A DNA stretch of 64,000 nucleotides from Spirochaetaceae bacterium (GTDB taxonomy: Bacteria; Spirochaetota; Spirochaetia; DSM-2461), in the NCBI GenBank assembly GCA_051531975.1, contig JAOPTT010000002.1, forward strand, positions 537,968 to 601,967, given 5' to 3'. Under the pieces are notes generated by a model, which saw only the letters and a list, made by a program, of their open reading frames with translations, did no database searches and was not told the DNA's origin. The translations under genes and the position numbers were made by a program. Position 1 is the stretch's first letter. Every line of letters starts with the position of its first letter. Positions 659 to 58,387 of the stretch are shown piece by piece.

Positions 659-2050
659 ATGAAAATGAAAAAAAATATTGTATTCTTTTTTACAGATGAT
701 CAACGTTTTGATACTATATCTGCTTTAGGTAATAAAGATGTTATAACCCCAAATATGGACAGGCTTGTTCATAATGGGACAACCTTTACTCATGCACATA
801 TCCCATGTGGAACGTCAGGTGCAGTTTGCATGCCTAGTAGAGCTATGTTACATACTGGAAGAACTCTTTTCCATCTTCAGGATGAAGGACAGGAAATTCC
901 TGAAGAACATATTACATTAGGCGAAACTTTACAGAAAGCAGGTTATGAGACTTTTGGTACAGGGAAATGGCATAATGGGACATCATCTTATGCTAGAAGT
1001 TTTACAGCTGGTGGAGAGATTTTTTTTGGTGGAATGTTTGATCATTGGAATGTCCCGGCATATAATTTTGATCCGACCGGGAAGTATGATAAAACTGTAC
1101 CATATGCTACTGCTGCATTTAGTTCCAGAAAATTAAATATTATGAACACTGATCATATCACCCCAGGTAAACACTCCTCGGAACTGTTTGGTGAAGTATC
1201 AGCAGAGTGGATTAAAAATTATAGTTCCGATAAACCATTTTTCAGTTATATCTCATTTATGGCTCCCCACGATCCAAGAACTATGCCTGAAAAATTTAAA
1301 AATATGTACAATGCAAAAGATATTCCACTACCGGAAAATTATCTGCCGGAACACCCATTTGATTTTGGTATAAGGGATTTAAGGGATGAAGTCTTGGCTC
1401 CATATCCAAGACAACCCCAGGAAGTTAAAGAACACATTGCAGAATATTATGGTATGATTACACATCTGGATAACGAGATGGGTAAAGTTATTAAAGCTGT
1501 TGAAGATAGAGGAGAGCTTGAATATACACTATTCATTTTTGCAGGTGATAACGGTTTAGCTTTAGGGCAACATGGACTTTTTGGTAAACAGAATCACTAT
1601 GAACACAGTATACGGGTACCTCTTATATTCTCTGGCCCCGGTATTCCTAAAGGTGAATTAAGGGATTCTTATGCCTATCTGTTAGACATATATCCAACAA
1701 TTTGTGAATATCTTAAGTTAGATAAGCCCGGAACAGTAGAAGGCAAAAGTCTAATTCCTCTTATAGATAATGTTAAAGCTATAAATAGGGAAACTCTGTA
1801 TTTTGCCTATACTGATATTATGAGGGGTGTGAAAGATGATAGGTATAAACTTATTGAATATGCGACACACTGCTGTAGAAAAACCCAACTTTTTGATTTG
1901 AAAAATGATCCTAACGAGATGAATGACCTATCAGATGACTTAACATATCTGGGCATAAAAAATAATCTAAGAAGTCAGATGTATATTTTAAGAGATGAGT
2001 GGGATGATAAAGAACATCCATTAGGCAAGAAGTTCTGGGAAAGATATTAG
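659..2050 (+). CDS. Formylglycine-dependent (Cys-type) sulfatase, choline-sulfatase-like
   Basis: FTDDQ, CMPSRAMLHTGR (CxPxR), GKWH, APHDP, GDNG...GKQN motifs; GGAG RBS upstream. Confidence 0.92.
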   Translation: MKMKKNIVFFFTDDQRFDTISALGNKDVITPNMDRLVHNGTTFTHAHIPCGTSGAVCMPSRAMLHTGRTLFHLQDEGQEIPEEHITLGETLQKAGYETFGTGKWHNGTSSYARSFTAGGEIFFGGMFDHWNVPAYNFDPTGKYDKTVPYATAAFSSRKLNIMNTDHITPGKHSSELFGEVSAEWIKNYSSDKPFFSYISFMAPHDPRTMPEKFKNMYNAKDIPLPENYLPEHPFDFGIRDLRDEVLAPYPRQPQEVKEHIAEYYGMITHLDNEMGKVIKAVEDRGELEYTLFIFAGDNGLALGQHGLFGKQNHYEHSIRVPLIFSGPGIPKGELRDSYAYLLDIYPTICEYLKLDKPGTVEGKSLIPLIDNVKAINRETLYFAYTDIMRGVKDDRYKLIEYATHCCRKTQLFDLKNDPNEMNDLSDDLTYLGIKNNLRSQMYILRDEWDDKEHPLGKKFWERY

Positions 2051-2070
2051 GAGCATAGTTTGTTTTAATG

Positions 2071-2095
2071 ATATAGAGCCCTAAGGGCCCTATAT
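2071..2095. terminator. Probable bidirectional intrinsic terminator
   Basis: ATATAGAGCCC-TAA-GGGCCCTATAT stem (1 mismatch) between convergent genes. Confidence 0.6.
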
Positions 2096-2100
2096 ATTAA

Positions 2101-3315
2101 CTATTGAACCCGTTCAACATGTTTAGACATCTCTTTGTTAATACCACCAAGAGATTCAATATTATCAGCCATAACTGTAAGTTGTTCCCTTTTATATGTA
2201 TCAAGAATATCAAATGCTTCAACACTATTATTAAATGAGATCTTAAGTGCATCAATAAGACTTGTTAGGTCATTTGCGCTCTTAATTATATCAACACCCT
2301 GAGTTTTAGCTTTCTCAGATGTACTCTTCATTGTTTCTGCAATAAATTCGTTTGTTGCATCAATAGCTTTCTTCTGACGTTTTTGGTGCATTAAAGCAAT
2401 TTCCATTGCCGCTGCAGATTCAAGTGCAATTTTAGCTAGATTTAATGTTCTATCAGTTGCTCTAATTAGCTCATCATTACCTCTAATAATAATGTCAGCA
2501 ACCATTATAGCCTGATTTGCTGCACCTAACGATAGCTGCATATCCTGAGTCTCTTGTCTTAAGCTATATAAAATATCCTCTTCAACAAAAGCGATATCTG
2601 TAAGTTCTCCAGAATCTACTAGTTTCACAATCTCAGAATCAAATAACATTGTTTCTTGTATTTTATCAGCTAGAGTAAAAACTATTTTAATAAGGCTATT
2701 TTTATCCGCTCTAAGGCTAATATTATCTTTTTGTAGAACTTCCTTACCTCTTTCTAGATTAACATATATATCATCAATAACCCTTGATACTGTTTGGTAC
2801 TGGCTCCACCACGCTTCTAATTTACTTCCAACACCTGGTATTTTGCTAAATAGTTTTCTAAGTCCACCATCAGTTAAACTCCGACTATTAGGGTTAATAG
2901 ACTCCATCTTTCCTCTTAATGTTAAAAGACCTGTAGATATATCTCCACCTTCTTTGTTTTTTTCCATTAAGTCTTTCATTGGAGCACTTAAAAGTTCACT
3001 TCTGTGGGAAATTCCTTTTCTTATCTCTAGACCAATTGATTTAGTTTTATCAGAAAATGCAGTTTTTGCATCAATATCTCTTTTACCAAACCCTTTAATC
3101 TCTACAACAAGTTTTGCAACACTATTTTTTACTTCTTCTGGAATTTCTTCTTCTAAAATATTCTCAGGAGAAACACTTCCAGCTTTTACTGCAATCTCTT
3201 TACTGTTTAAGTTCTTTACTGAATCTCCAGCATTTTCAATTACCTTTGCATGCTTTAACTCTTCTTTTATCTCTGTAGACTTATTTGCATTTTCTAATAT
3301 TTGTGTTGTTGACAT
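2101..3315 (-). CDS. telA: Toxic anion resistance protein (TelA family)
   Basis: Helical coiled-coil protein with TelA-like pattern (LLTLRGKMESINP, KLFSKIPGVG, QYQTVSRVIDDI, L.KDN..L, IIRGNDELIR.TDR); last gene of a vWA operon. Confidence 0.8.
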   Translation of the reverse strand: MSTTQILENANKSTEIKEELKHAKVIENAGDSVKNLNSKEIAVKAGSVSPENILEEEIPEEVKNSVAKLVVEIKGFGKRDIDAKTAFSDKTKSIGLEIRKGISHRSELLSAPMKDLMEKNKEGGDISTGLLTLRGKMESINPNSRSLTDGGLRKLFSKIPGVGSKLEAWWSQYQTVSRVIDDIYVNLERGKEVLQKDNISLRADKNSLIKIVFTLADKIQETMLFDSEIVKLVDSGELTDIAFVEEDILYSLRQETQDMQLSLGAANQAIMVADIIIRGNDELIRATDRTLNLAKIALESAAAMEIALMHQKRQKKAIDATNEFIAETMKSTSEKAKTQGVDIIKSANDLTSLIDALKISFNNSVEAFDILDTYKREQLTVMADNIESLGGINKEMSKHVERVQ

Positions 3316-3323
3316 TTTAACTC

Positions 3324-3710
3324 CTATTTTTCTATTTTAATTATATTCCAATTTTTTGCTTTTATATCTGTAAAACTTAACAAATATCTAAGATCATAAT
3401 CACCTTTAGGATATAGCTTATCTAATCTAGAAACATCCATAGTTCCAAACGAAACCCTGAAAAGACTATCTAAATTAGCATCTTTTCCTAAGTAAGTTTT
3501 ATCGGTACCATAGTGAAAGTTTTTGTATCTTGAATCTTCTTTAAGAATCTCAATCTCTTTAACTATATCGTTCCGATGTGTAGTTAAACCATAAGATGTT
3601 TCAACTACAACAGCAACTTCTTTAGGGTTTTGTGTAAAGTAAATATGACCAGCTAAAATCATACCTAACTGTAGTACTATTATTATAATTATAGATACTA
3701 ACTTACCCAT
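3324..3710 (-). CDS. Small membrane-anchored hypothetical protein, possible degenerate vWA-like fold
   Basis: N-terminal TM, then VAVVVETSYGL resembling a degenerate DxSxS strand; RBS; operonic. Confidence 0.6.
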   Translation of the reverse strand: MGKLVSIIIIIVLQLGMILAGHIYFTQNPKEVAVVVETSYGLTTHRNDIVKEIEILKEDSRYKNFHYGTDKTYLGKDANLDSLFRVSFGTMDVSRLDKLYPKGDYDLRYLLSFTDIKAKNWNIIKIEK

Positions 3711-3720
3711 TAAAACTCTC

Positions 3721-5394
3721 CTACATCTGTGCGTTTAACAGATTTCCAATATTATACGATGCTGAATCGGTTGATGACTCTGTGTATGATGCTTCAACTA
3801 AACTAGCAATATCTTTTAACTCACTTAATCCCATACCGTAAGCAATTGCATGTACTGGAATACCTATAGCTTTTATAACATTTTTAACCTTGGAAATATC
3901 GTATCCAGCAGTGGTTTGTCCATCAGATAAAATAAAACACATTAGTTTATGGTCAGGATTACTTTCTCCAAATGTTCTAAGCTCATCTAATGCAACTAAT
4001 ATAGCATCGTTAGTAGCAGTACCACCACCAGCATCTAGATCCTCAACTGCACCTATAAACTGTGCTTTATGTTGAATTCCAAACGTTCTAATTGGTAAAT
4101 CTACATTTACTGTATTACTATATGATACAAGTCCAATAGAGTTATTTGTTGATATAAATGATGAAGCACTATCTAATGCTTCTTTTAGTGCGTTTATATT
4201 TGGACCATCCATACTACCAGACACATCAGCAACAAATACAGCTGCAATTGGCTTACCACCAGATTTTTTGTCTTTCCAAATTTTCTGTGCTTGGCTAATA
4301 ACAACTCCATCTTTTATGCTATATGTATCTTTATGAGAAGGACCTTTACCAAAACCAAACTTACTTGTCTCAGCTTTATTTGATTCTATGAACTTTGCAA
4401 ACAACTTTAATACTTCAATTTCATTAACATCAGCCTCTTCAGTTGAATATAGAGGAGAGTTATGTTTCACACCAAATGGTATAAACTCATAACCACCTAG
4501 ACCTTTTGCTTCTACAAAAGTTTGATGTTCAAGAACAAATGCATCTAATACACCACTATTTAATGTAGCATCTCTCATTTGAAGTGTATTTTGTGCAACA
4601 AATGGAACACCCATTTGAAAAGCCTCAAAAGCGGAAGCTACTTCAGGATTAAGCATATTAGCTTCATCGCCCTGGGCAAATGCATCTAGTATAGTTAATA
4701 AAAAGTTTAATCCAGTTGAAGATTGAAATGGGTTTGTATATCCCATTGCAAAATTCCCACTAGTTACTTCTGTTAATAATTTTTGAATATCTAATTTACC
4801 ATTAGTTGTTATTAAATCAACTTTATCACTCTTAATTATAATTCCTGCTGTATTCTCTGCAGTTTTTTCTGCAATTGTAATTAAATTACCACCTTGAGCA
4901 TTTATCATTTTGCCCCATAAGGCATTACTTGGTGAGTAAGCATCAGGTGTATTAACACCTGCTAATATGAAAGATGCACCAGCACCAGATGCGATTTTTC
5001 TTATACCAATTTTTGCAACTTTACCATTTGAGATGTTATATGCTTGTTTATTAAATGCTTGTGCCATTTTAACATATAATCCATCAGTACCCTCACCAGC
5101 TTTTTCAGATGACGTAAATATTTGTGCAACTTCTACAGTAGAAGAATCAGAAACATCTAATGTTATTGGATACTCATTAATATCTGGTAACAACTCTAAA
5201 AGGTTTGTTGATGTTAATGAAATATTTGCTTTTCTCGTACTTTCAAAATACGATGGATCTATTTTTTTTAATAATTTATCAAGTTTTGCAATTTCATTTT
5301 CATCTCCAACTTGAACACCACTACCCCTATTTGAAATTTCTTCACAGCTAAATAGTAGAAATACCATAGCCAATAAAATTAAAATCTTTTTCAT
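3721..5394 (-). CDS. Lipoprotein with solute-binding-protein domain and C-terminal vWA domain
   Basis: Lipobox FLLFSC; SBP-like TNPFQSSTG; vWA MIDAS DVSGSM, GGT, LSDG. Confidence 0.85.
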   Translation of the reverse strand: MKKILILLAMVFLLFSCEEISNRGSGVQVGDENEIAKLDKLLKKIDPSYFESTRKANISLTSTNLLELLPDINEYPITLDVSDSSTVEVAQIFTSSEKAGEGTDGLYVKMAQAFNKQAYNISNGKVAKIGIRKIASGAGASFILAGVNTPDAYSPSNALWGKMINAQGGNLITIAEKTAENTAGIIIKSDKVDLITTNGKLDIQKLLTEVTSGNFAMGYTNPFQSSTGLNFLLTILDAFAQGDEANMLNPEVASAFEAFQMGVPFVAQNTLQMRDATLNSGVLDAFVLEHQTFVEAKGLGGYEFIPFGVKHNSPLYSTEEADVNEIEVLKLFAKFIESNKAETSKFGFGKGPSHKDTYSIKDGVVISQAQKIWKDKKSGGKPIAAVFVADVSGSMDGPNINALKEALDSASSFISTNNSIGLVSYSNTVNVDLPIRTFGIQHKAQFIGAVEDLDAGGGTATNDAILVALDELRTFGESNPDHKLMCFILSDGQTTAGYDISKVKNVIKAIGIPVHAIAYGMGLSELKDIASLVEASYTESSTDSASYNIGNLLNAQM

Positions 5395-5403
5395 AAACTC
5401 TCC

Positions 5404-6096
5404 TTATTTTTTACTGTACTGTTTAGCTCTCTCAGTCAACTCTTTAAGTCTATTAAGAGATTCATCATATTCAAATGACCCAATATCTTTAATATTTGCG
5501 ACTTCTACAGAGATAACATTAAGTGCTTTTAGTAACTCTTTATTACTTTCTATAATATTTAATATGTATTTCCTCTGTTTCTCTACTATATCTAGATCAT
5601 CTTCAGGAATATTTGAACCATATCTCTCTTCTACTGTTTCAATACTAATATCTGCAATTAATATATCTTTTAAGTTTTGTCTAACAAGATTAAAAACTCT
5701 CTCAGATTCTGTAATATAACTGCTATGAGTAATTGTTGAACTACCTAACTTCTCTTTAACAACTCTTCGAAAGTCATTTAATAACAAAAGTAACTTTTCA
5801 GATTGTTCCGATGCTACAGGTTGATCTGCTATTAGAAGATCTTTTTTAAGTTTTGATATCTCATCGAATAGTTCTTCTTCATCTTTTAATATTGAATCCT
5901 TAATTTCTTTTTCTTTATCAGCTTTTAAATTACCAGATAGAATATAAACTAACACACCTATAATTGAACAAACTAATGTTCCTACAAAAAATAAGATGAA
6001 AGTTACAATATTTAAATCGAATAAAACTTTAGCGAATAACGATATTAAAAAACCACTTATTAATGAAATTATAAATATTTTCTTAATTTTAACCAC
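5404..6096 (-). CDS. Two-TM membrane protein with helical cytoplasmic domain (XpaC-like position upstream of telA)
   Basis: Two N-terminal hydrophobic helices and a coiled-coil C-terminus; first gene of the operon; start codon uncertain. Confidence 0.6.
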   Translation of the reverse strand: MVKIKKIFIISLISGFLISLFAKVLFDLNIVTFILFFVGTLVCSIIGVLVYILSGNLKADKEKEIKDSILKDEEELFDEISKLKKDLLIADQPVASEQSEKLLLLLNDFRRVVKEKLGSSTITHSSYITESERVFNLVRQNLKDILIADISIETVEERYGSNIPEDDLDIVEKQRKYILNIIESNKELLKALNVISVEVANIKDIGSFEYDESLNRLKELTERAKQYSKK

Positions 6097-6395
6097 CCCC
6101 GAAATTTTTAATTATGATAAACATATTAAATTATTTACATACAATATATTAATTGTAAGTAATTATAGATTATTTTTTACTTAAATGTACAATTGATTTA
6201 TAAAAAAATACAAATATAATAAGTCATAAATTATTAAATCGTTATCATTATAAATAATATAGTACCAAAATTAATAATCCTTAATGAAAATAAGTTCTAT
6301 AATAAAACCTAAAGTATACACATAATTGCTTTGTAGAGGGTTTTACTCCAGGTTAGTAGACATCATTATGTATAATTGTCTATATTCGTATACAT

Positions 6396-7130
6396 ATGAA
6401 ACATATAAATTTAATAATTATTTCAATCCTAATTTTCCTTAATATATCTAGTATATATTCTCAGAGTAGTACAAGTTTTAATTCTTTAAACCAGACTCTT
6501 TCTTCTAATGATAAAAGTGAAAGTCGTATCTCTTCTGGAATGTTGTTATGGACTGATAGCCCATCATCAAGAGCTATTTATGAAGAACTAGAATCTCATG
6601 TAAACTTTTTATCTATGAATATTAGGAATAACAGTGATCTAATTTCTTATTACAATAGTAGAGAAGCATACCTAGAAAACATAGGTGATACATTAAATAA
6701 TATCCGTGATTTGATACTTAAAAGATCCAATAGCTTTTATGGGCCTGATGAGTGGGAAATTATCGATTCTGAAATCTTTATACATTATTCTGGAATATTA
6801 AACGAATTAGCATGGGCTCAGTTTAATACTATTCCGATGTTTGGTTCCTGGATGGAAAACATTGATCTTAAAAACAGATTCAAAGAGGGCAATTTTTATA
6901 CTTTAAAAGGTATTGATCGGATATTACAAGCTGTAAGATCTGAAAGGTCCAGGATAGGTGCAATAACTAATACTCTTGGTTTTAGAGGGGATAGGTTGGC
7001 TACTGAAGAGGAGAATACAATGTCTTTTCAGAGTAGTGGTGATACGGATTTTGCTAAAGAATTAATTAATATGAAGAGAAACGAGATAATGTTCTTTTCA
7101 AATATTTTTTTGCTTAAGCAGCAGAAATAG
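6396..7130 (+). CDS. Miniature flagellin (FlaB-like) homologue with predicted N-terminal Sec signal peptide
   Basis: Flagellin_N pattern (SRISSG...IRN..D.IS....EAYL....DTLNNIRDL...SNSFY...EI...AQFN) and Flagellin_C pattern (IDRIL..VRSERSRIGAITNTL...EENT...DTDFAKEL...NEI), preceded by MKH + hydrophobic core + IYS/Q. Confidence 0.8.
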   Translation: MKHINLIIISILIFLNISSIYSQSSTSFNSLNQTLSSNDKSESRISSGMLLWTDSPSSRAIYEELESHVNFLSMNIRNNSDLISYYNSREAYLENIGDTLNNIRDLILKRSNSFYGPDEWEIIDSEIFIHYSGILNELAWAQFNTIPMFGSWMENIDLKNRFKEGNFYTLKGIDRILQAVRSERSRIGAITNTLGFRGDRLATEEENTMSFQSSGDTDFAKELINMKRNEIMFFSNIFLLKQQK

Positions 7131-7172
7131 CTGAGTTATTATGAAATGTGGGAAGAGTCTGTTTAGTTAGGC

Positions 7173-7308
7173 TTAGAGTATATTGTACGTTTTTCCATCA
7201 GTGGCAGTTGTCCCAAAAATTGCGACAACTGAATGCTTTATTTGAACTCTCGCAAAAATTGCGATAGTTCAATATTTTGTTAATTCACTTCGGTAAAATA
7301 TTATTAAT
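7173..7308 (-). pseudogene. Decayed RhuM-family (virulence RhuM / DNA-binding protein) fragment
   Basis: Minus strand reads INNI-(frameshift)-YRSELTKY*TIAIFARVQIKHSVVAIFGTTATDGKTYNIL*, matching the RhuM signature HINNIx.EGEL....VVAxFATTAxDGKxY as I recall it. Confidence 0.65.
7205..7272. repeat. Two tandem related imperfect palindromes
   Basis: CAGTTGTCcCAA-AAA-TTGcGACAACTG (7205-7231) and TTGAACTcTCGCAA-AAA-TTGCGAtAGTTCAA (7242-7272); shared core CAAAAATTGCGA. Confidence 0.9.
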
Positions 7309-7378
7309 AAATAGATCGATTAACTTATATAAATATTAAAATACGAATCAATGCACTAAATCATAAAATAGTTCCTCA

Positions 7379-7407
7379 TTGACCTGTCAGTATAAAGAAT
7401 ATAAAAT
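7379..7407 (+). promoter_or_regulatory. Sigma70-type promoter, probably leaderless transcript of the MNT gene
   Basis: TTGACC-17 nt-TAAAAT, ATG 6 nt downstream, no SD. Confidence 0.55.
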
Positions 7408-7413
7408 TGTTAT

Positions 7414-7713
7414 ATGAATCTTAATGAAGCACCATCAGAGTTCCAAGAAGACATTTCTAATCTAGTTAGTTACTTAAACTCTATTGGTCTAGAAGAGGTA
7501 TATCTTTTTGGATCTCTAGCTAGAAATGAAGCAACAGATGACTCTGATATTGATATTGCTGTTAGAGGAATAAAAGCTGAAGACTTTTTTCAGGTTTATG
7601 GTGAACTTATGATGAGAACAACACACTCTCTCGACTTTATAGACCTTAACCTTCAGGAATCATTTGGAAACCAGCTCAGTAATAGTGGTGAGTTAAAAAG
7701 AGTATTTTTATGA
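7414..7713 (+). CDS. Minimal nucleotidyltransferase (MNT) antitoxin
   Basis: YLFGSLARNEATDDSDIDIAV (GS-x10-DxD); overlaps the downstream HEPN gene (ATGA). Confidence 0.88.
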   Translation: MNLNEAPSEFQEDISNLVSYLNSIGLEEVYLFGSLARNEATDDSDIDIAVRGIKAEDFFQVYGELMMRTTHSLDFIDLNLQESFGNQLSNSGELKRVFL

Positions 7714-8126
7714 CTCTAGAAGAGAGAGTTGAAGCTGAAATAAAAAATATTAATAGAGAGCTAGAAATAGTAATATTACTAACTAAAAAGCTAAATACTA
7801 ATTTATCTTTAGATGATATAGAAGTTAGAGCTGCAGCGTTATCTCTAGTTTCCATATATAATGGTATTGAAAAAATCCTAGTAAGAATTATTAAAAAAAA
7901 ACATACATTTCAAGAAAATTCAAACTGGCATACTAAATTATTAAATATTTCTTTGGAGATGGATTTAATAAAAAAGGATACATACGATGGTCTTAAAGGT
8001 TATCTAGCATTTAGGCATTTTGTTAGACATGCTTATAGCTTTGAGATTAATAAAGATGCCATAACTTCTATTCTTAAAATGGTTCCAAGTCTGATTCAGA
8101 AATTTACTAACGATCTTCCTTATTAA
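7710..8126 (+). CDS. HEPN RNase toxin (HepT/DUF86-like)
   Basis: RHFVRHAY (R-x4-H-x-Y), YNGIEKIL, WH.KLL; coupled to MNT. Confidence 0.85.
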   Translation: MTLEERVEAEIKNINRELEIVILLTKKLNTNLSLDDIEVRAAALSLVSIYNGIEKILVRIIKKKHTFQENSNWHTKLLNISLEMDLIKKDTYDGLKGYLAFRHFVRHAYSFEINKDAITSILKMVPSLIQKFTNDLPY

Positions 8127-8231
8127 AAAAATATTACTACATTAATAATATTGTAATTCCTTATGTATTACCGAGTTCTTTATCTAAAGTAAAATACGAT
8201 CTAATCTATTATTCAGAATATTAAAATAAAT

Positions 8232-8257
8232 TGTTACTATTTCCAATATTCCTCGTT
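8232..8257 (+). promoter_or_regulatory. Candidate ECF-sigma autoregulatory promoter
   Basis: TGTTAC-16 nt-CGTT, resembling SigW/SigX-type TGxAAC-N16-CGT, directly upstream of the ECF gene. Confidence 0.5.
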
Positions 8258-8276
8258 TTATATATTAGAATAAGGA

Positions 8277-8876
8277 GTGGATAGATTGGAAATGACGGAT
8301 ATAGAGATACTTAAAAGTATTAGATCAGGGAATTCTACTGAGTTTGTAAAACTCTACCAAAAGTATTTTGATAAAATTTACAGATACATTTATACAAAAA
8401 CATACCATAAAGAGAGTGCTGAAGATATTTCCAGCATTACATTTATTAAGGCCCTAGAAAATATATCAAAGTTTAAAGGTGATGGATCAAAATTAATCAG
8501 CTGGATATATAGGATCGCAAGTAATCAGGTAATTGATTACTACAGAAAAAGTACAAATGATAAAAACATAGACGATTTATGGGATCTCTCATCTAAAGAC
8601 GATATAGAAGTAGATCTAATAAATAAAGATAGTTTTGACTCTCTATATAAATACCTACATCAATTAAATAAATTAGAAAGGGATATAATTACACTTCATT
8701 TATGGGAAGAAAATACATTTAAAGAGATAGGATTCATCCTAAAGTTATCTGAAGGTAAATGTAAAATGACTTATTATAGATCCTTAAAAAAAATGAGAAA
8801 TAGTATTAAAGACATTATTACTATTTTAACAGCTCTAAAACCACTCTTATTAACAGGAGAAAACCATGATAAATAA
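8277..8876 (+). CDS. ECF (sigma-70 group 4) RNA polymerase sigma factor
   Basis: Region 2 (IYRYIY...AEDI...F.KA...SWIYRIASNQVIDYYRK) and region 4 (LHLWEENTFKEIG...SEGKCK); true start may be TTG 8286 or ATG 8292. Confidence 0.9.
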   Translation: MDRLEMTDIEILKSIRSGNSTEFVKLYQKYFDKIYRYIYTKTYHKESAEDISSITFIKALENISKFKGDGSKLISWIYRIASNQVIDYYRKSTNDKNIDDLWDLSSKDDIEVDLINKDSFDSLYKYLHQLNKLERDIITLHLWEENTFKEIGFILKLSEGKCKMTYYRSLKKMRNSIKDIITILTALKPLLLTGENHDK

Positions 8877-10884
8877 ATTAAAAGATAATAAACCACAGAT
8901 AGATATAGATGATAAATTCAAAACAGAATTAAAAGATAACTTAATTTCTAAAGCTAGTAAAATGCATAAAAAGAGAAAAGTGATTGCTTTCCATCCAATA
9001 CCAGCATATTTCTCTGTAGGAATTGCAGCAGCTCTTGTAATATTTTTAACCTTTCCAGGTATTGAAAAAGAAGAAACTTTATTAAAGTCAGATTCAGAAA
9101 TTATATATGAATTTATGGAAGAGGCTCCTGTAATTAAAGAGATTGAAGCAATACCAGAGACAGAAACCGTATACCAATCTAAAGATGAATCTCCTGTAGA
9201 CAAAGAGATTAAATTAGTACTAGAGAAAACAATCGAATACGATCTAATAGATGAAGAAGAAGCACCAAGTTATGAAGATGTTGAACTGTTAAGTAGTATG
9301 GATGCAGAAGTTTCAAAGCTATATCAACCGGTATCAAAAAAAGAGATGGCAGAATTTAATAAAAGTGGATCGATACAACCATCAATTATGGGTAGTGCTG
9401 AAACAAAGTGGGGTTTTAGTTTAGATAACGTGAATCAGGGTGATTTAAGCTTAGGATACGTTAATAATGTTGAATCTAATACTGAGGAGTATACTAAGAT
9501 CGTGGAGAATAGGTTTTTATCTGCTATAGAGACTCCTCTATCAACATTCTCTATAGACGTAGATACAGCGTCCTATGCAAATGTTAGAAGATATATTAAC
9601 TCTAATAGTTTGCCACCAAAGGACTCTGTACGAATAGAGGAGATGATAAACTATTTTAACTACGACTACCCTGTTCCAACAAATGAGAAACCATTCTCTA
9701 TATATACTGAAATAAGTTCAGCACCCTGGAACAGTGAGAACCACCTAGTTCATATTGGTATCCAGGGAAAAGATATTCCAAAGGAAAGTTTACCGCCATC
9801 AAATATTGTATTTCTTATAGATGTTTCTGGATCTATGGCCAATGATAACAAATTAGGACTTCTAGTTAAATCTGTGGATCTAATGTTAGAGAATTTCACA
9901 AACAAGGATAGAATTGCAGTTGTAGCCTACGCTGGTGCAGCAGGTGTTGTACTACCATCAACTAGCGGAGACAGGTCAGAAGTAATTTTAGAGTCATTTC
10001 AGAGGCTATCAGCTGGAGGTTCTACAGCAGGAGCACAGGGAATTGAATTAGCATATAACATAGCAATGGAAAACTTTATTCCAGATGGAAATAACAGAGT
10101 AATAATTGCAACAGACGGTGATTTTAATGTTGGTAGTTCATCAACTGGTGATCTAACTAGACTAATAGAAGAGAAAAGAGATTCAGGTGTTTTTCTTACA
10201 GTATTAGGTTTTGGAATGGGAAATTACAAGGATAGTAGAATGGAATCTTTAGCCGATAGTGGAAATGGTAATTATGCTTATATAGATTCACTGTTAGAGG
10301 CTCAAAAAGTACTTGTTCAGGATATAAAAAAGACACTTTTTGTAATAGCTAAAGATGTTAAAATCCAAGTTGAATTTAACCCAGCTATAGTTTCAGAATA
10401 CAGACTAATTGGTTATGAGACCAGACTGCTAGAGGACAGGGATTTTACAGATGATAAAGTTGATGCTGGAGATATTGGATCTGGGCATACAGTTACAGCG
10501 CTATACGAAGTAAGTTTAGTAAAGGGTGATGATAAAACAGAAGACAATCTTAGATACCAGGATACGACAATAAATAGTACTGGTAAAACTAGTGGAGAAA
10601 TATTAACACTATCTATTAGATATAAAGAACCTAAAGAAGATATCAGTAATTTAATTAGGGTTCAGGTAGAATCAAAGATCAAAACATTAGAGAATAGTTC
10701 TAATAACTTCAAACTAAGTGCTGCAGTAGCAGGTTATGGACAACTTCTTAGAGGATCAGAGTATATTAAAAATTATGGTTACGACGATGTAATATCAATG
10801 ACTAAAGATACATTAGAAGATGATGAATTTGGATATAGATCAGAATTTTATACCTTACTAAGAAAAGTTAAGTTATTAAAATAA
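8866..10884 (+). CDS. Anti-sigma-like N-terminus + TM + YfbK-type vWA protein (vWF_A / vWA / DUF3520)
   Basis: DDKFKTELKDNL cytoplasmic segment and single TM; PLSTFSIDVDTASY, VRIEEMINYF, DVSGSM, ATDGDFNVG, AKDVKIQVEFNP, DAGDIGSGHTVTALYE. Confidence 0.88.
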   Translation: MINKLKDNKPQIDIDDKFKTELKDNLISKASKMHKKRKVIAFHPIPAYFSVGIAAALVIFLTFPGIEKEETLLKSDSEIIYEFMEEAPVIKEIEAIPETETVYQSKDESPVDKEIKLVLEKTIEYDLIDEEEAPSYEDVELLSSMDAEVSKLYQPVSKKEMAEFNKSGSIQPSIMGSAETKWGFSLDNVNQGDLSLGYVNNVESNTEEYTKIVENRFLSAIETPLSTFSIDVDTASYANVRRYINSNSLPPKDSVRIEEMINYFNYDYPVPTNEKPFSIYTEISSAPWNSENHLVHIGIQGKDIPKESLPPSNIVFLIDVSGSMANDNKLGLLVKSVDLMLENFTNKDRIAVVAYAGAAGVVLPSTSGDRSEVILESFQRLSAGGSTAGAQGIELAYNIAMENFIPDGNNRVIIATDGDFNVGSSSTGDLTRLIEEKRDSGVFLTVLGFGMGNYKDSRMESLADSGNGNYAYIDSLLEAQKVLVQDIKKTLFVIAKDVKIQVEFNPAIVSEYRLIGYETRLLEDRDFTDDKVDAGDIGSGHTVTALYEVSLVKGDDKTEDNLRYQDTTINSTGKTSGEILTLSIRYKEPKEDISNLIRVQVESKIKTLENSSNNFKLSAAVAGYGQLLRGSEYIKNYGYDDVISMTKDTLEDDEFGYRSEFYTLLRKVKLLK

Positions 10885-10898
10885 ACCGGATTGAAATA

Positions 10899-10930
10899 GA
10901 TAGATGAGTCCCAACCGGGGCTCATTTATC
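10899..10930 (+). terminator. Intrinsic terminator hairpin
   Basis: GATAGATGAGTCCC-AACC-GGGGCTCATTTATC after the vWA gene. Confidence 0.7.
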
Positions 10931-10989
10931 TTAGTTAGTAAATTATTAAATCTAGAGAAAGTATATTAATTCCGATACTATTAAAGTAT

Positions 10990-11889
10990 ATGAAACTTTA
11001 TTTTTTAATGTTTTTACTTATATTAAACTTCTTATCTATAAAACTTAATGCAATACAGCCAACTAATTTTATAAATTCCATACCAAAAATTATGAATTTT
11101 AATAACATATTAGAAAATCCCATTAAAAACTGGGATAATCCATCTTTTGAAATATACAGATATAAGTTAGTACCAGAAATTATAATTATCGATACCATAG
11201 ACTACTCCATGCAATCTGATTTGTTTAAACGGTTAGCTTTTTTTGTTGAGAAAAAGGGGTATGTTGGTAAGATTTATTCAATGGATGAACTAGGTAATAA
11301 ACGTGGTTGGAATGCCCATGACTATAATGCAAAGAATCTTTCCCAGTTTTTTAACAGAGCTAATTCAGATAACATACCTCTAACAGATGGGGAGCAGATC
11401 TTAAAAACCATATTATTAAATACAAAAGTAATAAATATAACAGAAGATGAATTTACTCCAGGAGTTGGAGCTATTATATCAATATCAAGAAGCTCAACAG
11501 CAAATTTTAGGTCTCTAATTTTAAGACACGAGATCATCCACGGGTTATATTTTACTTCTGGGGATCTAAGAAACTATGTTGATACTACCTGGGATGATCT
11601 AGAGAAAAACTCAAAAAAAATAATAACTATGTTCCTAGACTCCTTAACCTACGATGTTACAAATAAGGATCTTCTTAAAAATGAATTTCTAGCATATCTT
11701 TTACAAAGAGATGAAAATGAGACTTATAAATACTTTAATTCAACAGTATATAACAGGCTCATTTTACATTATCCTAAAGAACAACCTATGATAGATGAAT
11801 ATTTTAAAAGAAATAAAACTCCCTTTAGTTATCCCCTAAAAAAGTTAAATAACTATATTAAAAAGAATACTTCAGGGAGCATATTTTAA
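10990..11889 (+). CDS. Exported hypothetical protein with gluzincin-like zinc metallopeptidase motif
   Basis: Signal peptide; HEIIH followed ~40 aa later by NEFLAY. Confidence 0.6.
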   Translation: MKLYFLMFLLILNFLSIKLNAIQPTNFINSIPKIMNFNNILENPIKNWDNPSFEIYRYKLVPEIIIIDTIDYSMQSDLFKRLAFFVEKKGYVGKIYSMDELGNKRGWNAHDYNAKNLSQFFNRANSDNIPLTDGEQILKTILLNTKVINITEDEFTPGVGAIISISRSSTANFRSLILRHEIIHGLYFTSGDLRNYVDTTWDDLEKNSKKIITMFLDSLTYDVTNKDLLKNEFLAYLLQRDENETYKYFNSTVYNRLILHYPKEQPMIDEYFKRNKTPFSYPLKKLNNYIKKNTSGSIF

Positions 11890-12197
11890 TTGAGGGTAGA
11901 GTATATTGTAATACCGATACGATCTATATGGTCGATAAGTTCTCTATTTTTAAAGTCAGAGTAGTTTTGAACATCAATTAAGTAGACAATTTCCGACTCT
12001 TCTAATTCAGATATTAAACTCGAGAGTATAAACCTGTTTAGATTCTCTCCATATATGACAAGGTTAATATCACTTCTTTGTGTAAATGTACCTTTAGCTC
12101 TAGATCCGTAGAGTTTAACTCTCTTTATATCATTAAATTCAGTGAAGATTTTTGTTAAAGTAGTAATAATCGTTCTATCTAGACCAGTATTAATCAT
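11886..12197 (-). CDS. Minimal nucleotidyltransferase (MNT), DxD motif altered to DIN
   Basis: LYGSRAKG...RSDINL; C-terminal LIDHIDRIG. Confidence 0.85.
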   Translation of the reverse strand: MINTGLDRTIITTLTKIFTEFNDIKRVKLYGSRAKGTFTQRSDINLVIYGENLNRFILSSLISELEESEIVYLIDVQNYSDFKNRELIDHIDRIGITIYSTLN

Positions 12198-12612
12198 TCA
12201 TTATCTCTTCCAATAGCTGGGAGTACAAATTCTCAAGAACAACAAGGTAATCGTTTTGAATACTAATAAGTATGACTTCGAACTTTGAAAAGTCATATGT
12301 GTGGCTCATTAGATTTCTATCACCTATCATTTTAAACCACATATCAACATCGTTAATATATTTAGTTTCATAAGCCTTTCTAGCAACAGATTTAGGGGAA
12401 ATTCTATCTAAAATAATACCATCGAATTCTAACCGATCCTTTAGTACCTTCCAAGCTAATTCGAATGTATATTCAAATCTCTGAATTACACCCTCTTTTT
12501 CAAGCTGACTTAAACTATCTAAATCATTATCCATAGCTTCTCTTAATAGTAAGAAAGCACGTTTGAAATTAGAAAATCTCTGTTTCCATCTGATATCTGT
12601 ATTGTCACTCAT
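12190..12612 (-). CDS. HEPN protein, HI0074-family nucleotidyltransferase substrate-binding subunit
   Basis: DIRWKQRFSNF, EGVIQRFEYTFELAWK, DRNLMSHTYD. Confidence 0.9.
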   Translation of the reverse strand: MSDNTDIRWKQRFSNFKRAFLLLREAMDNDLDSLSQLEKEGVIQRFEYTFELAWKVLKDRLEFDGIILDRISPKSVARKAYETKYINDVDMWFKMIGDRNLMSHTYDFSKFEVILISIQNDYLVVLENLYSQLLEEIMND

Positions 12613-55099: not shown

Positions 55100-57124
55100 A
55101 TGGACGAGAGTGATTTATTAAATTTCAAACTGAATCGAATAAAAAGGACTTCAAAACTTAAAAAACCAGGAGAATGGATAGACCCTGATACTATTATTGA
55201 AATAGATGGAAAAGAGATTATTGGTGGATTCTTCTATACTGGGAACTTTCTAAAGGGTCTAGATGCTTTTAGTAATGAACCCTCTTTAATAGATCCTGAT
55301 TTAACTGTTAACTTTAATAATCCAAATATATCAGGAAGCGGTATGGGTTACTGGCCTACATATAGCTTAATATCTCCAGAAAGTAGAGCTGCATATTTAA
55401 ACTGGTTAAGAGGTTCAAGAGATAATACAGAGGACTATATTGGTTTTGTATTTTTATATCTTTATGGATTAGAACGTAGGTTACTTCTAGATAATAGAAA
55501 AAACAAACTTGAGCCACAGGAATTACAGGATATATATACGGAACTATATCGCCTAAAAGATATTTATAATATTAACCACTCATTTGAAATTCATATAAAC
55601 TCTCTTTTATCATATTTAATGGCTATTCAGGCAGACATTGTAGATTTAGAAGATATCCCCAATGATCTAATTCTAAGCAAAAATAAATTTAATAATGGTT
55701 TTAAATATTTAATGGGATACAGTGTTAGAAACTCTATACCTATAACATCAGAACTAGCATATGCATGGGTATATAATCATCCGGAATATAATTTAAGGAC
55801 TCCAGCTGTTCGTTGTGACACAGAATTCAAGAAACTCTTTTCTAAGCGTTTTTCAGAAGAATTTCCTAGTGGAATGATAATTAAAGAGAATAAAAAAAAA
55901 TTAGTTCTCCACTATATACCTGTAAATGTAACCTTAAGAAATTATATTCCACCAAATATTGATCTACCTGATCCATGCAGATTAAAAAAGCACTTTTCTA
56001 TGGTACAGGAAATAGCAGATTTAGTTATTAAGGAACTTGAGCCCTTAAGCCGCTATATGGCTGGTGATGGGCACTCAAAAAAGGATCTAAATTATGTAGC
56101 TTTAATACCAGTTGATCTACTTGATGGTATAAAAAACACCGGACTTGAAAATATTAGAAGTGAATTAACTCAGCTATCAAAAAGTGATACCGAAACTATT
56201 GATGTGGAATTAATTATGAGTTTATTGGATATCAATCCTCATCAGAAATTAGACAAAAAAATTGCACAGTTTATCATTAAAATATTAGGGGCTGTAGGTT
56301 ATGGTGTAGCGCCAGACTTAAGGTACCACCATACGACCTTTAAATTAACAGAGCAGATAGTTCTATTCAAAACTAGTAGGTTTATAAACTTTGAACCATC
56401 CCACGAGTTTAACTTAACTGGGGCAATTATTAGATTAGCAGATCTGATTCCTAATATTTCGGAACAATTATTAATAAACCATATTAATGGTAATAGCTCT
56501 TTAACAGATATGGAGAAATTATCCCTAAGAGCATACCTTAAATGGAGACTATTACATCAAAAAGATTCAGTGGGACTAAAGCTACTATTAAGTTTGCTAA
56601 ATTTAAACCAGAAAGAGGTTATTGGGAACATATTAATTGACCTTAGTATAATAGACGGGAAAGTAGACAGTATAAAAACAGATGCTCTAAAAAAAGTATT
56701 TAATGTTTTAGATCTAGAAGACAATTTGGTAAAAGAAAAAATAGATTTAAAGAGGAAGGACAGTTTTGCTCTGGATCATGATCTATTAAAGATTCACGAA
56801 GAAGAGACTAAGGATGTTCAGGAAATTTTAGAAAATATATTTGCCATAGATGAAATAATTATAGAAAATAAACCACAGGTTCCAAGGACCCAACTGGATA
56901 AAAATCACCTAAACCTTTATAATAAATTAATAAAACAGGAAGAATGGGAATACTCTGAGGTAGAAAAGATATGTAGTTCTTTGAACCTTATGGTATCTGG
57001 GGCAATAGAAGTTATTAATGACTGGGCTTATGATCTAGTTGATGCTCCACTAATTGAAGATGAAAATCCACTATATATAGATGACGAGATAAAACAGGAG
57101 ATTGAATGTATACTAAAAAACTAA
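55100..57124 (+). CDS. sngA: TerB-N / TerB-C domain protein, Shango SngA-like
   Basis: EPSLIDP, YWPTYS.ISP..RAAYL.WL, IGFVFLYLYGLERR, LRTPA.RC; C-terminal GAIEVINDWAYD..DAPLIE. Confidence 0.8.
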   Translation: MDESDLLNFKLNRIKRTSKLKKPGEWIDPDTIIEIDGKEIIGGFFYTGNFLKGLDAFSNEPSLIDPDLTVNFNNPNISGSGMGYWPTYSLISPESRAAYLNWLRGSRDNTEDYIGFVFLYLYGLERRLLLDNRKNKLEPQELQDIYTELYRLKDIYNINHSFEIHINSLLSYLMAIQADIVDLEDIPNDLILSKNKFNNGFKYLMGYSVRNSIPITSELAYAWVYNHPEYNLRTPAVRCDTEFKKLFSKRFSEEFPSGMIIKENKKKLVLHYIPVNVTLRNYIPPNIDLPDPCRLKKHFSMVQEIADLVIKELEPLSRYMAGDGHSKKDLNYVALIPVDLLDGIKNTGLENIRSELTQLSKSDTETIDVELIMSLLDINPHQKLDKKIAQFIIKILGAVGYGVAPDLRYHHTTFKLTEQIVLFKTSRFINFEPSHEFNLTGAIIRLADLIPNISEQLLINHINGNSSLTDMEKLSLRAYLKWRLLHQKDSVGLKLLLSLLNLNQKEVIGNILIDLSIIDGKVDSIKTDALKKVFNVLDLEDNLVKEKIDLKRKDSFALDHDLLKIHEEETKDVQEILENIFAIDEIIIENKPQVPRTQLDKNHLNLYNKLIKQEEWEYSEVEKICSSLNLMVSGAIEVINDWAYDLVDAPLIEDENPLYIDDEIKQEIECILKN

Positions 57125-58386
57125 GAGCTAAAGAGAGAGATTCTATAATTCAATCATTAAAAGCCGGTGTAACTCCACGAACTGGTATACAGCATATTCA
57201 GGTCGGTAGAGTAAAAGAAGTAAAAGCACTTATAAAAGATATAGATAGAGTTGCAGAAGGTGGTTCAGCTTTTAAACTAATTATTGGTGAGTTTGGATCG
57301 GGAAAGACATTCTTTTTATCTGTTATTAAATCTATAGCTCTAGAAAAAAAACTTGTTGTTATAAATGCAGATCTATCCCCAGATAGAAGAATACATGCAT
57401 CTAGTGGACAGGCAAGAAATCTATATTCAGAACTTATGAAGAACCTCTCTACAAGAAACAAACCAGATGGAAATGGACTAACAAGTGTTGTTGAGAAGTT
57501 TATAAGTTCTGCCCGCCAGGAAGCTGATAGTTCAGATTATTCTGTATCAGAAGTTATTAAAAATAGACTATCTTCTATGCATGATTATGTTGGAGGATAT
57601 GACTTTGCCCAGGTAATAAACAAGTATTGGGAAGGCTATGAAAGTTCTAATGATGAACTTAAAAACAGCGCGATAAGGTGGCTAAGAGCTGAATATACAA
57701 CTAAAACTGATGCCAAAAAGGCATTGGGGATTAGAACTATAATATCCGATACATCATTTTATGATAACCTAAAATTAATGAGCCTATTTGTAAAACAGGC
57801 TGGATATACTGGTCTTTTAGTAAACCTAGATGAGATGGTAAATCTCTACAAACTACACAATAGGCAGGCTAGGCTGTCTAACTATGAGCAAATTTTAAGG
57901 ATTTTAAACGACTGCCTACAAGGAAGTGCAAACAGTATAGGTTTTCTACTTGGTGGAACCCCTGAGTTCCTTTCTGATACTAGGCGCGGACTGTTTAGTT
58001 ATGACGCTCTACAAACCAGGCTTGCAGAGAACAGTTTTGCAAAAGATGCTGGAGTCGTAGACTATACCTCACCTACGTTACAACTTAATAATCTAACACC
58101 GGAGGAGTTATATATACTCTTAAAAAATCTCAGATGGGTTTATGCATCAGGGGATGAATCAGAATATCTTGTATCTGATGAAGCGCTATCAGCATTTTTG
58201 AATCACTGCAGTAATAAAATTGGGGATGCTTATTTTAGGACACCAAGAAATACTATAAAAGCATTTGTAGATATGCTTGCCGTTTTAGAGCAGAACAGAG
58301 ACTTAAAGTGGGAAGATCTTATAGATTCTGTGGAATTAACAGATGCAGATAGTTTAGATAACGAGCTAACAGGTTTTGAACTCTGA
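57106..58386 (+). CDS. sngB: DUF2791 (BrxD-like) P-loop ATPase, Shango SngB-like
   Basis: SLKAGVTPR.G, GEFGSGKTF, LDEMVNLYK, YDALQTRL, TPRNTIKAF. Confidence 0.83.
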   Translation: MYTKKLRAKERDSIIQSLKAGVTPRTGIQHIQVGRVKEVKALIKDIDRVAEGGSAFKLIIGEFGSGKTFFLSVIKSIALEKKLVVINADLSPDRRIHASSGQARNLYSELMKNLSTRNKPDGNGLTSVVEKFISSARQEADSSDYSVSEVIKNRLSSMHDYVGGYDFAQVINKYWEGYESSNDELKNSAIRWLRAEYTTKTDAKKALGIRTIISDTSFYDNLKLMSLFVKQAGYTGLLVNLDEMVNLYKLHNRQARLSNYEQILRILNDCLQGSANSIGFLLGGTPEFLSDTRRGLFSYDALQTRLAENSFAKDAGVVDYTSPTLQLNNLTPEELYILLKNLRWVYASGDESEYLVSDEALSAFLNHCSNKIGDAYFRTPRNTIKAFVDMLAVLEQNRDLKWEDLIDSVELTDADSLDNELTGFEL

Positions 58387-58387
58387 T

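Follow-up and report, generated by a model that had tools for sequence, protein, structure and literature searches.

A small gene in a 64,000-nucleotide stretch of a Spirochaetaceae genome (hereafter the window; assembly GCA_051531975.1, contig JAOPTT010000002.1, positions 537,968 to 601,967 of the forward strand) encodes a flagellin homologue – here termed a mini-flagellin – that begins with a predicted signal peptide for the general secretory (Sec) pathway. The protein is genuinely homologous to flagellins and has their D0/D1 helical core. Its family, conserved and previously undescribed, forms a single old clade under purifying selection. Flagellins are textbook substrates of the flagellar type III export system. 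What appears to be new here, judging from sequence, is a flagellin fold combined with a different export route and a trimmed architecture. We think it probable that the product is a periplasm-targeted, low-abundance flagellin derivative which is not a type III filament subunit, and which would act on the periplasmic flagellum from outside. The gene and its parts are:

6396..7130, + strand, stop codon included: whole gene for the 244-residue mini-flagellin pre-protein with its predicted signal peptide (open reading frame (ORF) list, both Pfam flagellin models, homologues)
6396..6461, + strand: predicted Sec-type signal peptide, residues 1-22 (MKHINLIIISILIFLNISSIYS), with a putative signal peptidase I (SPase I) site after Ser22 (homologue alignment)
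6462..6554, + strand: N-terminal D0 segment, residues 23-53 (SLNQTL ... RISSGMLLW), opposite FlaB residues of about 4-36 (alignment A3)
6555..6842, + strand: N-terminal D1 helices, residues 54-149, with the motifs LNNIRDL (LQRIREL) and AQFN (Pfam Flagellin_N, structural model, VIA-align)
6843..6902, + strand: short family-specific linker, residues 150-169 (SWMENIDLKNRFKEGNFYTL), in place of the FlaB beta-hairpin region of about 45-60 residues (A3 and joint alignment)
6903..7127, + strand: C-terminal D1 and a shortened, more hydrophobic C-terminal D0, residues 170-244, ending LLKQQK (Pfam Flagellin_C, alignment)
6097..6395, + strand: upstream intergenic region (pattern scans for sigma-28, Shine-Dalgarno and sigma-70)

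The ATG that opens the ORF at 6396-7130 (+) is the first start codon in its open frame; none lies earlier.

Homology and predicted fold

The initial annotation had matched the protein by eye to the two conserved flagellin blocks. HMMER aligned the same blocks, and both Pfam models scored above their cut-offs. Flagellin_N (PF00669) reached 36.3 bits (cut-off 26.6; E 7e-9) and pairs residues 24-149 with positions 7-134 of its 139, while Flagellin_C (PF00700), barely over its cut-off of 23 with 23.1 bits (E 9.4e-5), pairs residues 170-240 with positions 1-72 of its 86. Flagellin_C coverage stops at profile position 70-72 of 86 in three genomes, that of the window and those of two orthologues. At E≤10 no Pfam family besides these two was found in the window protein, the FlaA domain (PF04620) included. 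Among the NCBIfam models, 18 for flagellin or FlgL were listed, all of them far below their cut-offs (the best 51.1 bits against 443); the window protein is thus claimed by no curated family. Identity with FlgL (hook-associated protein 3) was considered and rejected, TIGR02550 giving 34.8 bits against a cut-off of 127.2 and the flagellin models, though also far under their cut-offs, scoring higher (51.1 bits). A phmmer search of PDB sequences returned 58 matches at E≤10, with spirochaete flagellins the best (Leptospira FlaB1, 6pwb, 2.4e-11).

Structural comparison was based on an AlphaFold2 model built from 27 homologues. The model is all-helical with a mean predicted local distance difference test (pLDDT) score of 70.9, the D1 helices reaching 78-90 (78-89 over residues 54-149). 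All 12 Foldseek matches at E≤0.001 (best E 5.2e-5) are flagellin-family structures, as are the top 38 listed, one of which is a hook-filament junction complex. VIA-align gave a similar result: 49 of the 50 listed entries (Z 13.8-11.8) are flagellin structures and the remaining one, 9go6, is a Salmonella hook-filament junction complex; the best, 8cvi_I, has Z 13.8 and a root-mean-square deviation of 2.3 A over 157 residues. Helical bundles easily reach Z values around 13, but here the match in fold agrees with homology in sequence.

The N-terminal signal sequence

The window protein begins MKHINLIIISILIFLNISSIYS|Q, that is, with a basic n-region, 12 hydrophobic residues and I-x-S ahead of Q, in keeping with Sec/SPase I pre-proteins, whose hydrophobic core has 7-15 residues. 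The presequence can be divided into MKH, the core INLIIISILIFL and NISSIYS|Q; across the family this pattern is conserved while the sequence of the core varies, and divergent members show the same build. Among 27 close homologues, 25 obey the -3/-1 rule at the aligned cleavage site, position -1 being small and position -3 of a permitted kind (I/L/V/A-x-S/A/G before Q or E). All members whose 5' end is complete have some 20 additional N-terminal residues that are built like a Sec signal (n-, h- and c-regions) and include a site of SPase I type. A hydrophobic N-terminal stretch – a maximum 10-residue Kyte-Doolittle value of at least 2.2 ahead of D0 – is present in 74/77 family proteins compared to 2/167 other flagellins, after 18 family and 20 other-flagellin rows (fragments, or rows without the anchor motif) had been set aside. 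The three exceptions are one fragment and gene calls that start late; for one such public call (P0052) the full ORF restores the signal. The Sec-type N-terminus proposed in the initial annotation is therefore a feature of the family.

Nor is the stretch a by-product of base composition. An origin as an artefact of AT bias is ruled out by GC-rich homologues: the signal is kept in genomes of 31-69% GC, ...LSLGSAAA|QD among them; one GC-rich homologue reads MYKRTRTVLACLAALSLGSAAA|QD, and a homologue from a 69% GC genome reads M..KRTRTVLACLAALSLGSAAA|QD. Two other kinds of signal were rejected. The window presequence holds no Cys, and the few members with Cys have no lipobox, which tells against a lipoprotein; for a twin-arginine translocation (Tat) signal, no twin-arginine motif is seen. 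The FlaA proteins of the window genome carry look-alike signals (MKRLLALLGFTLLLLSNSVFA|E and MRQKGLCLLVLFIIMPITVFA|D). As a side observation, two of the public predictions P0052, P0063 and P0068 begin downstream of the signal peptide and so hide it, and P0068 (275 residues) has an unrelated N-terminal part of about 90 residues ahead of the family core.

From these patterns Sec targeting appears very likely, and cleavage at or near Ser22 likely. If the signal were not cleaved it would act as an anchor, tethering the protein to the inner membrane with the flagellin domain in the periplasm. Residues 2-20 do form one helix in the model, and Pro, which SPase I disfavours, stands at -1 in 2 of the 27 aligned sites. 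However, in gene calls that open with the conserved MK the entire presequence is just 17-22 residues long, about 12 hydrophobic residues are short for a membrane span, the c-region is polar (N, S, T, P) with small residues at -3/-1 in 25/27, and GC-rich members have textbook A-x-A sites: we consider an anchor improbable.

Anatomy compared to FlaB

The architecture was compared to that of FlaB in alignment A3 and in a joint alignment of 37 family members with 29 FlaB sequences. Ahead of the position of FlaB residue 4 the family has on average 24.6 residues against 5.2 in FlaB, an excess of about 20. What follows is a nearly complete N-terminal D0, family S-L-x-F-L-N-R-I-L standing opposite FlaB S-A-M-x-A-N-R-x-L; in most members N-R-x-L and R-L-S-S-G are as far apart as they are in FlaB, and the window protein has a 4-residue deletion there. 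Because NISSIYSQ resembles a normal flagellin N-terminus, it had been suggested that the signal was built on it. The family-wide alignment A3 points elsewhere: FlaB 'NHNMSAM..NR.L' lies opposite 'QSSTSFNSLNQTL' (a local HMMER alignment with PDB flagellins gave another register), and this register makes the signal an add-on before the N-terminal D0 rather than a rebuilt flagellin N-terminus.

Further along the chain the family is trimmed. The RIN.A loop is two residues shorter and reads LL(W/L)TDDP. Between the N- and C-terminal D1 the family has 28-31 residues where FlaB has 64-95 in the same columns – the short middle noted at the outset – and the beta-hairpin (..GAN.DQ..) is deleted. In the linker that replaces it, positions F162, E164, F167 and Y168 are invariant in alignment A1; the replaced region includes the segment that is described as glycosylated in FlaB1/2 of T. 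denticola (bioRxiv 10.64898/2026.02.04.703737). The early end of the C-terminal D0 likewise held up: past the aligned 'ML' the family runs on for 4 residues on average, and 29/29 FlaB for 15 (...QAN..PQ.VL.LL.). Both the hairpin region and most of these last ~15 residues are missing from every member, and over 12 aligned residues this D0 is more hydrophobic (mean Kyte-Doolittle 1.50 against 0.53). A hydrophobic, shortened D0 would argue against the forming of a hydrophilic export channel and would be consistent with a small oligomer or with docking onto an existing lattice.

These comparisons bear on the possibility that the protein is, after all, a substrate of flagellar type III export, that is, one of the filament's own flagellins, in a minor or specialised part, with an unusual N-terminus that the export gate lets pass. 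Ordinary filament flagellins have a short polar N-terminus as export signal in place of a cleavable signal peptide. A type III substrate would be expected to show flagellin homology over its whole length and a nearly complete N-terminal D0, and the mini-flagellin has both. Yet a hydrophobic N-terminus of this kind occurs in only 2/167 ordinary flagellins, the family is without the C-terminal D0 tail that ordinary flagellins always keep (15 residues in each of 29 FlaB), it is a separate clade, and its genes have neither a sigma-28 motif nor the regular Shine-Dalgarno sequences of FlaB genes (3/15 against 10/10 rows; see below). We regard this alternative as very improbable.

The family, its phylogeny and its distribution

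The gene had been described as an orphan; it is not. A word-indexed search found 35 close relatives (47-79% identical, mostly 240-251 residues, with several partial ones of 169-237), followed after a gap by ordinary flagellins at about 1e-8. A profile of 27 homologues searched against 1.84 billion cluster representatives gave 42 clusters (50% identity) at E≤1e-30; the family thus comprises at least 42 clusters, and it is spread over several spirochaete lineages. All match in a single stretch, the full-length ones being 228-280 residues, whereas the ordinary flagellins that come next match in two stretches. The 36 sequences retrieved comprise 33 members of the family and 3 short flagellins of the ordinary kind. 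When the search was repeated with profile A2 (37 sequences, 25-74% identical to the window protein) the separation was clean: the family scores at least 228 bits, the best ordinary flagellin 145.

A quick maximum-likelihood tree with long branches was made from 87 rows (41 family, 20 FlaB, 25 other flagellins and one FlgL as root). The family is one clade (Shimodaira-Hasegawa-like approximate likelihood ratio test (SH-aLRT) 99, stem 0.75). Nearest to it stand three flagellins on long branches, so that the tree points to no particular donor lineage.

Public records name members only as 'flagellin' or 'flagellin-like hook-associated protein FlgL'. The named records are Spirochaeta isovalerica (orthologue P0024) and metagenome-assembled genomes of Spirochaetia, Spirochaetaceae, Spirochaetales and Brevinematales, that is, only Spirochaetota, and Spirochaetota are the commonest source of the nearest Atlas cluster (116 members). 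Within the taxonomic family of the window genome, full-length matches (E≤1e-115) occur in 4/38 genomes, the other matches being FlaB and restricted to the N-domain; in three congeners searched (71%, 81% and 96% complete) there was no family gene. Across an even sample of the phylum, in which 6 candidates per genome were scored, the gene was found in 12/401 Spirochaetota genomes and 7/153 genera, from at least two classes and always in one copy. Each of five carrier genomes checked has 1-3 full FlaB genes, and four of the five also have a weaker Flagellin_C match in a frame of about 415-425 residues that is FlgL-like by size alone. The window genome has two FlaB, FlgK/FlgL and three FlaA matches, all on contigs other than that of the window.

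The shortness of the gene, its divergence, its isolated position and its weak ribosome-binding site might raise the suspicion of a decaying flagellin pseudogene or a mis-called ORF. Selection speaks otherwise, and in line with the expectation of a functional gene: the ratio of nonsynonymous to synonymous substitution rates (dN/dS) is 0.11 for an unsaturated pair of homologues (L022 and L024; dS 0.20), with 0.11 (window and L023) and 0.08 for two near-saturated pairs. Length is conserved at about 240-255 residues over the 42 clusters, and 11 of 12 full-length matches have no internal stop; the twelfth (G177) shows a TAA, yet its locus (L029) gives an intact ORF of 242 residues. On these data of selection and conservation the pseudogene explanation is already refuted, and we give it next to no weight. 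Separately, several FlaB-like matches in the relatives G016, G013, G012 and G019 are flagged with one in-frame stop (TAA or TGA).

Expression signals

The Shine-Dalgarno core precedes 3 of 15 family genes – the window gene is without one – compared to all 10 FlaB control rows, and a sigma-28-like motif was found in 0/15 upstream regions of the family against 5/10 of the FlaB rows, one FlaB gene being counted twice among the ten and both patterns being crude. The sigma-28 pattern is a loosened form; a stricter form (1/11 rows) missed the control FlaB promoter. Sigma-70-like hexamers are present at 6357-6386 but do not exceed chance (13 sites in the pattern scan against 10.1 ± 3.3 expected). With poor ribosome-binding sites and no sigma-28 motif, the upstream patterns suggest that the family genes lie outside the late flagellar regulon, and that they are weakly translated and of low abundance. 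One small metatranscriptome of the same sample has no reads on the gene, which speaks neither for nor against its expression. The terminator scan found none 3' of the window gene, and a search of Rfam with 5900-7500 gave only a sub-threshold chance match (rliI, 16.5 bits against 45).

The FlaB genes of the same genome can be set beside these. FlaB1 (L001, contig C16) has a sigma-28-type promoter (TAAAG-N17-CCGATAT) about 111 nt upstream and a GGAGG ribosome-binding site, and the FlaB genes stand in tandem near two FlaA-like genes.

A proposed role in the periplasm

The reading that we favour runs as follows. The pre-protein would cross the inner membrane via Sec, and cleavage after Ser22 would leave a mature protein of about 222 residues in the periplasm, the compartment of spirochaete flagellar filaments. 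A protein exported in this way could not reach the growing tip of the filament through the type III channel and so would not be an ordinary filament subunit. The mature protein would bind FlaB subunits, lattice edges or uncapped ends, serving as a minor accessory or quality-control factor; from outside, its candidate actions on FlaB are to assist as a minor accessory or to bind either ends or unassembled FlaB. Action from outside is favoured because the D1 motifs for flagellin folding and subunit contacts are retained, and spirochaetes would be the place for it because their filament is periplasmic and thus within reach of a protein exported by Sec; all named records are from this phylum. Weak translation signals and the missing sigma-28 motif argue against an abundant sheath protein. 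There is precedent in the sheath proteins, which are described as carrying Sec signals and as patchily distributed modular add-ons (bioRxiv 10.64898/2026.02.04.703737; PMC9254593).

Within this proposal, action on the flagellar filament as such is more tentative, and we would put it somewhat below an even chance; the remainder of the odds falls to self-assembly or another periplasmic role. It is also conceivable, if quite unlikely, that a Sec-delivered flagellin assembles in the periplasm without the type III channel, as a polymer of its own or as a terminator or repair subunit on broken or uncapped filaments. A complex prediction of the genome's own FlaB (alignment A4) with the mature protein (A2, residues 23-244) gave 0.02 and 0.00 against a mark of 0.32 and weighs neither way.

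Several observations tell against a periplasmic flagellin derivative that acts on the flagellum. The absence of the sigma-28-like motif is one. Another is the neighbourhood: no flagellar or chemotaxis Pfam family was found in 10 ORFs at 659-11886 or in 36 ORFs at 12-64 kb, just as the initial annotation had remarked that no flagellar genes are nearby, and an all-against-all comparison of ORFs from 17 loci found no neighbour shared across clades. In the tree the family clade falls outside the branch that holds the 20 sampled FlaB rows, so that descent from spirochaete FlaB in particular, as first supposed, does not follow. The sparse distribution implies that the function is dispensable. The signal was called from in-house hydrophobicity and -3/-1 rules together with conservation, and Pro at -1 in 2/27 aligned sites means that some members may be cleaved elsewhere or not at all. 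Finally, the D0 parts of the model have low confidence (pLDDT 40-61), the N-terminal D0 segment (residues 23-53) lying below 50.

If the protein does not serve the flagellum, it might be a periplasmic or envelope protein that has put the helical bundle of flagellins to new use, as a scaffold, a ligand binder or a self-assembling coiled coil – a role that may be likened to that of the cell-surface flagellin homologues of Sphingomonas sp. A1. We hold this to be unlikely, but it is a serious rival. The lack of flagellar context, conserved synteny and a sigma-28 motif is what it would predict; the family has a conserved linker of its own (RFKE..FY.L) where FlaB has an outward-facing hairpin; the C-terminal D0 is the more hydrophobic (1.50 against 0.53); and two structures described as 'bacterial cell-surface flagellin', 3k8v and 3k8w, are among the structural matches (Z 13.3 and 13.2). 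Against these stand the universal flagellin D1 motifs, which the family has kept over 25-30% identity, the restriction of named records to Spirochaetota, whose filaments are periplasmic, and the finding that all five carriers checked are flagellated by gene content. On balance we retain the derivative acting on the flagellum from outside as the preferred reading.

Genomic neighbourhood

The window gene lies between a TelA/VWA-lipoprotein group (VWA, von Willebrand factor A) upstream on the opposite strand and, downstream, an MNT/HEPN-type pair, an extracytoplasmic function (ECF) sigma factor and a VWA protein; the remaining window holds signalling, regulator and defence-like genes. Neighbours are shared within one genus only (5 loci), and all of these are metabolic or signalling genes.

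Some of the neighbours merit description in their own right. The upstream group, directly adjacent at 2101-6096 (-), consists of a TelA-family protein, a 128-residue ORF, a 557-residue VWA lipoprotein (LFSC lipobox) and a 230-residue membrane/coiled-coil protein without a Pfam match. At 7414-8126 a Polbeta-type nucleotidyltransferase (99 residues) and a HepT-like protein (138 residues) overlap and resemble an MNT/HEPN toxin-antitoxin module; in the intergenic segment before the pair (7211-7281) CAAAAATTGCGA(C/T)A occurs twice at a distance of 39 nt, which may mark an operator. A second protein of the nucleotidyltransferase-substrate-binding (HEPN-like) kind, of 140 residues, stands beside a 103-residue ORF at 11886-12612 (-) and may belong to a similar module. 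At 8277-10884 the ECF sigma factor gene overlaps the gene of a 672-residue protein with vWF_A, VWA and YfbK_C, in the place where an anti-sigma factor is expected. Further away (55100-60628), a TerB_N/TerB_C protein, a BrxC/BrxD-family ATPase (505 bits) and a DEAD-box helicase follow one another and have the look of a defence-type trio. At other loci of the family – L022 (8202-8858), L024 (1301-1951) and L008 (1224-1865) – a convergent gene for an S-adenosylmethionine-dependent methyltransferase of about 215 residues lies just 3' of the mini-flagellin gene; it is absent at the matching place in the window, L023 and L007.

Significance

A search of full-text literature brought up no flagellin described as having a Sec signal, though more filament proteins may be listed in the mass-spectrometry supplement to the T. 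denticola preprint. One article (PMC7911332) was considered as a prior description and set aside, the relevant terms occurring in unrelated passages.

The pairing of a flagellin core with a Sec signal, only in bacteria with periplasmic filaments, suggests a route that is closed to external flagella: delivery from the side. If filament binding is true, the family would be a new class of modular spirochaete flagellar accessory protein and the first to be homologous to the core itself; if there is no filament binding, it would show plainly that the flagellin fold has been turned to some other task in the periplasm. Should Sec-delivered assembly be true, no earlier flagellin-fold protein would have been found to assemble independently of flagellar type III export. 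There is also a practical side: public 'flagellin' or 'FlgL' labels on family members inflate the filament-gene counts of carrier genomes. Since one carrier, Spirochaeta isovalerica, is a named and described species, the question should be accessible at the bench.

Comparison with known systems

Among small flagellin relatives the FlaC-type proteins of Campylobacterota resemble the family in consisting of D0/D1 only and in not being the main filament protein. FlaC-type proteins, however exported through the flagellar type III system, are not known to carry a Sec signal. An Atlas cluster labelled 'putative Flagellar secreted protein' (251 residues; score 0.93) is a lead only.

The cell-surface flagellins of Sphingomonas sp. 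A1 (3k8v and 3k8w) show the flagellin fold at work outside a motility filament and match the window protein in structure (Z 13.3/13.2) and in sequence (2.1e-6/0.0035), but they keep larger outer domains. They bind alginate and are not known to have a signal peptide.

FlaB – Leptospira FlaB1 (6pwb, 9lrz) and the two of the window genome – has the same Pfam domains and D0/D1 fold as the window protein, provides its best sequence matches, and shares with the family the motifs LSSG, DD.A, LQRIREL, FN, GA and D.D.A.E. It differs in having no signal peptide (it starts MIINHN) where the family has a presequence of about 20 residues, and in possessing the beta-hairpin region of about 45-60 residues and 15 further C-terminal residues. 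FlaB genes, unlike those of the family, have a strong Shine-Dalgarno sequence and often a sigma-28 promoter.

In its delivery the mini-flagellin would come closest to FlaA, FcpA/FcpB, FlaAP and FlaL1/FlaL2, which are described as having an N-terminal Sec signal and arrive in the periplasm independently of type III export, as is proposed here. The folds are unrelated: FlaA and FlaL2 are described as beta-sandwich proteins and FlaL1 as a HEAT-repeat protein, and on those folds identity with Treponema denticola FlaL1/FlaL2 was ruled out. Filament association has been shown for these Sec-exported proteins and is a proposal for the mini-flagellin. The resemblance extends, however, to the signals of the genome's own FlaA proteins, which are similar to that of the mini-flagellin, and to distribution: FlaL at least is described as patchy and lineage-specific, as is the family.

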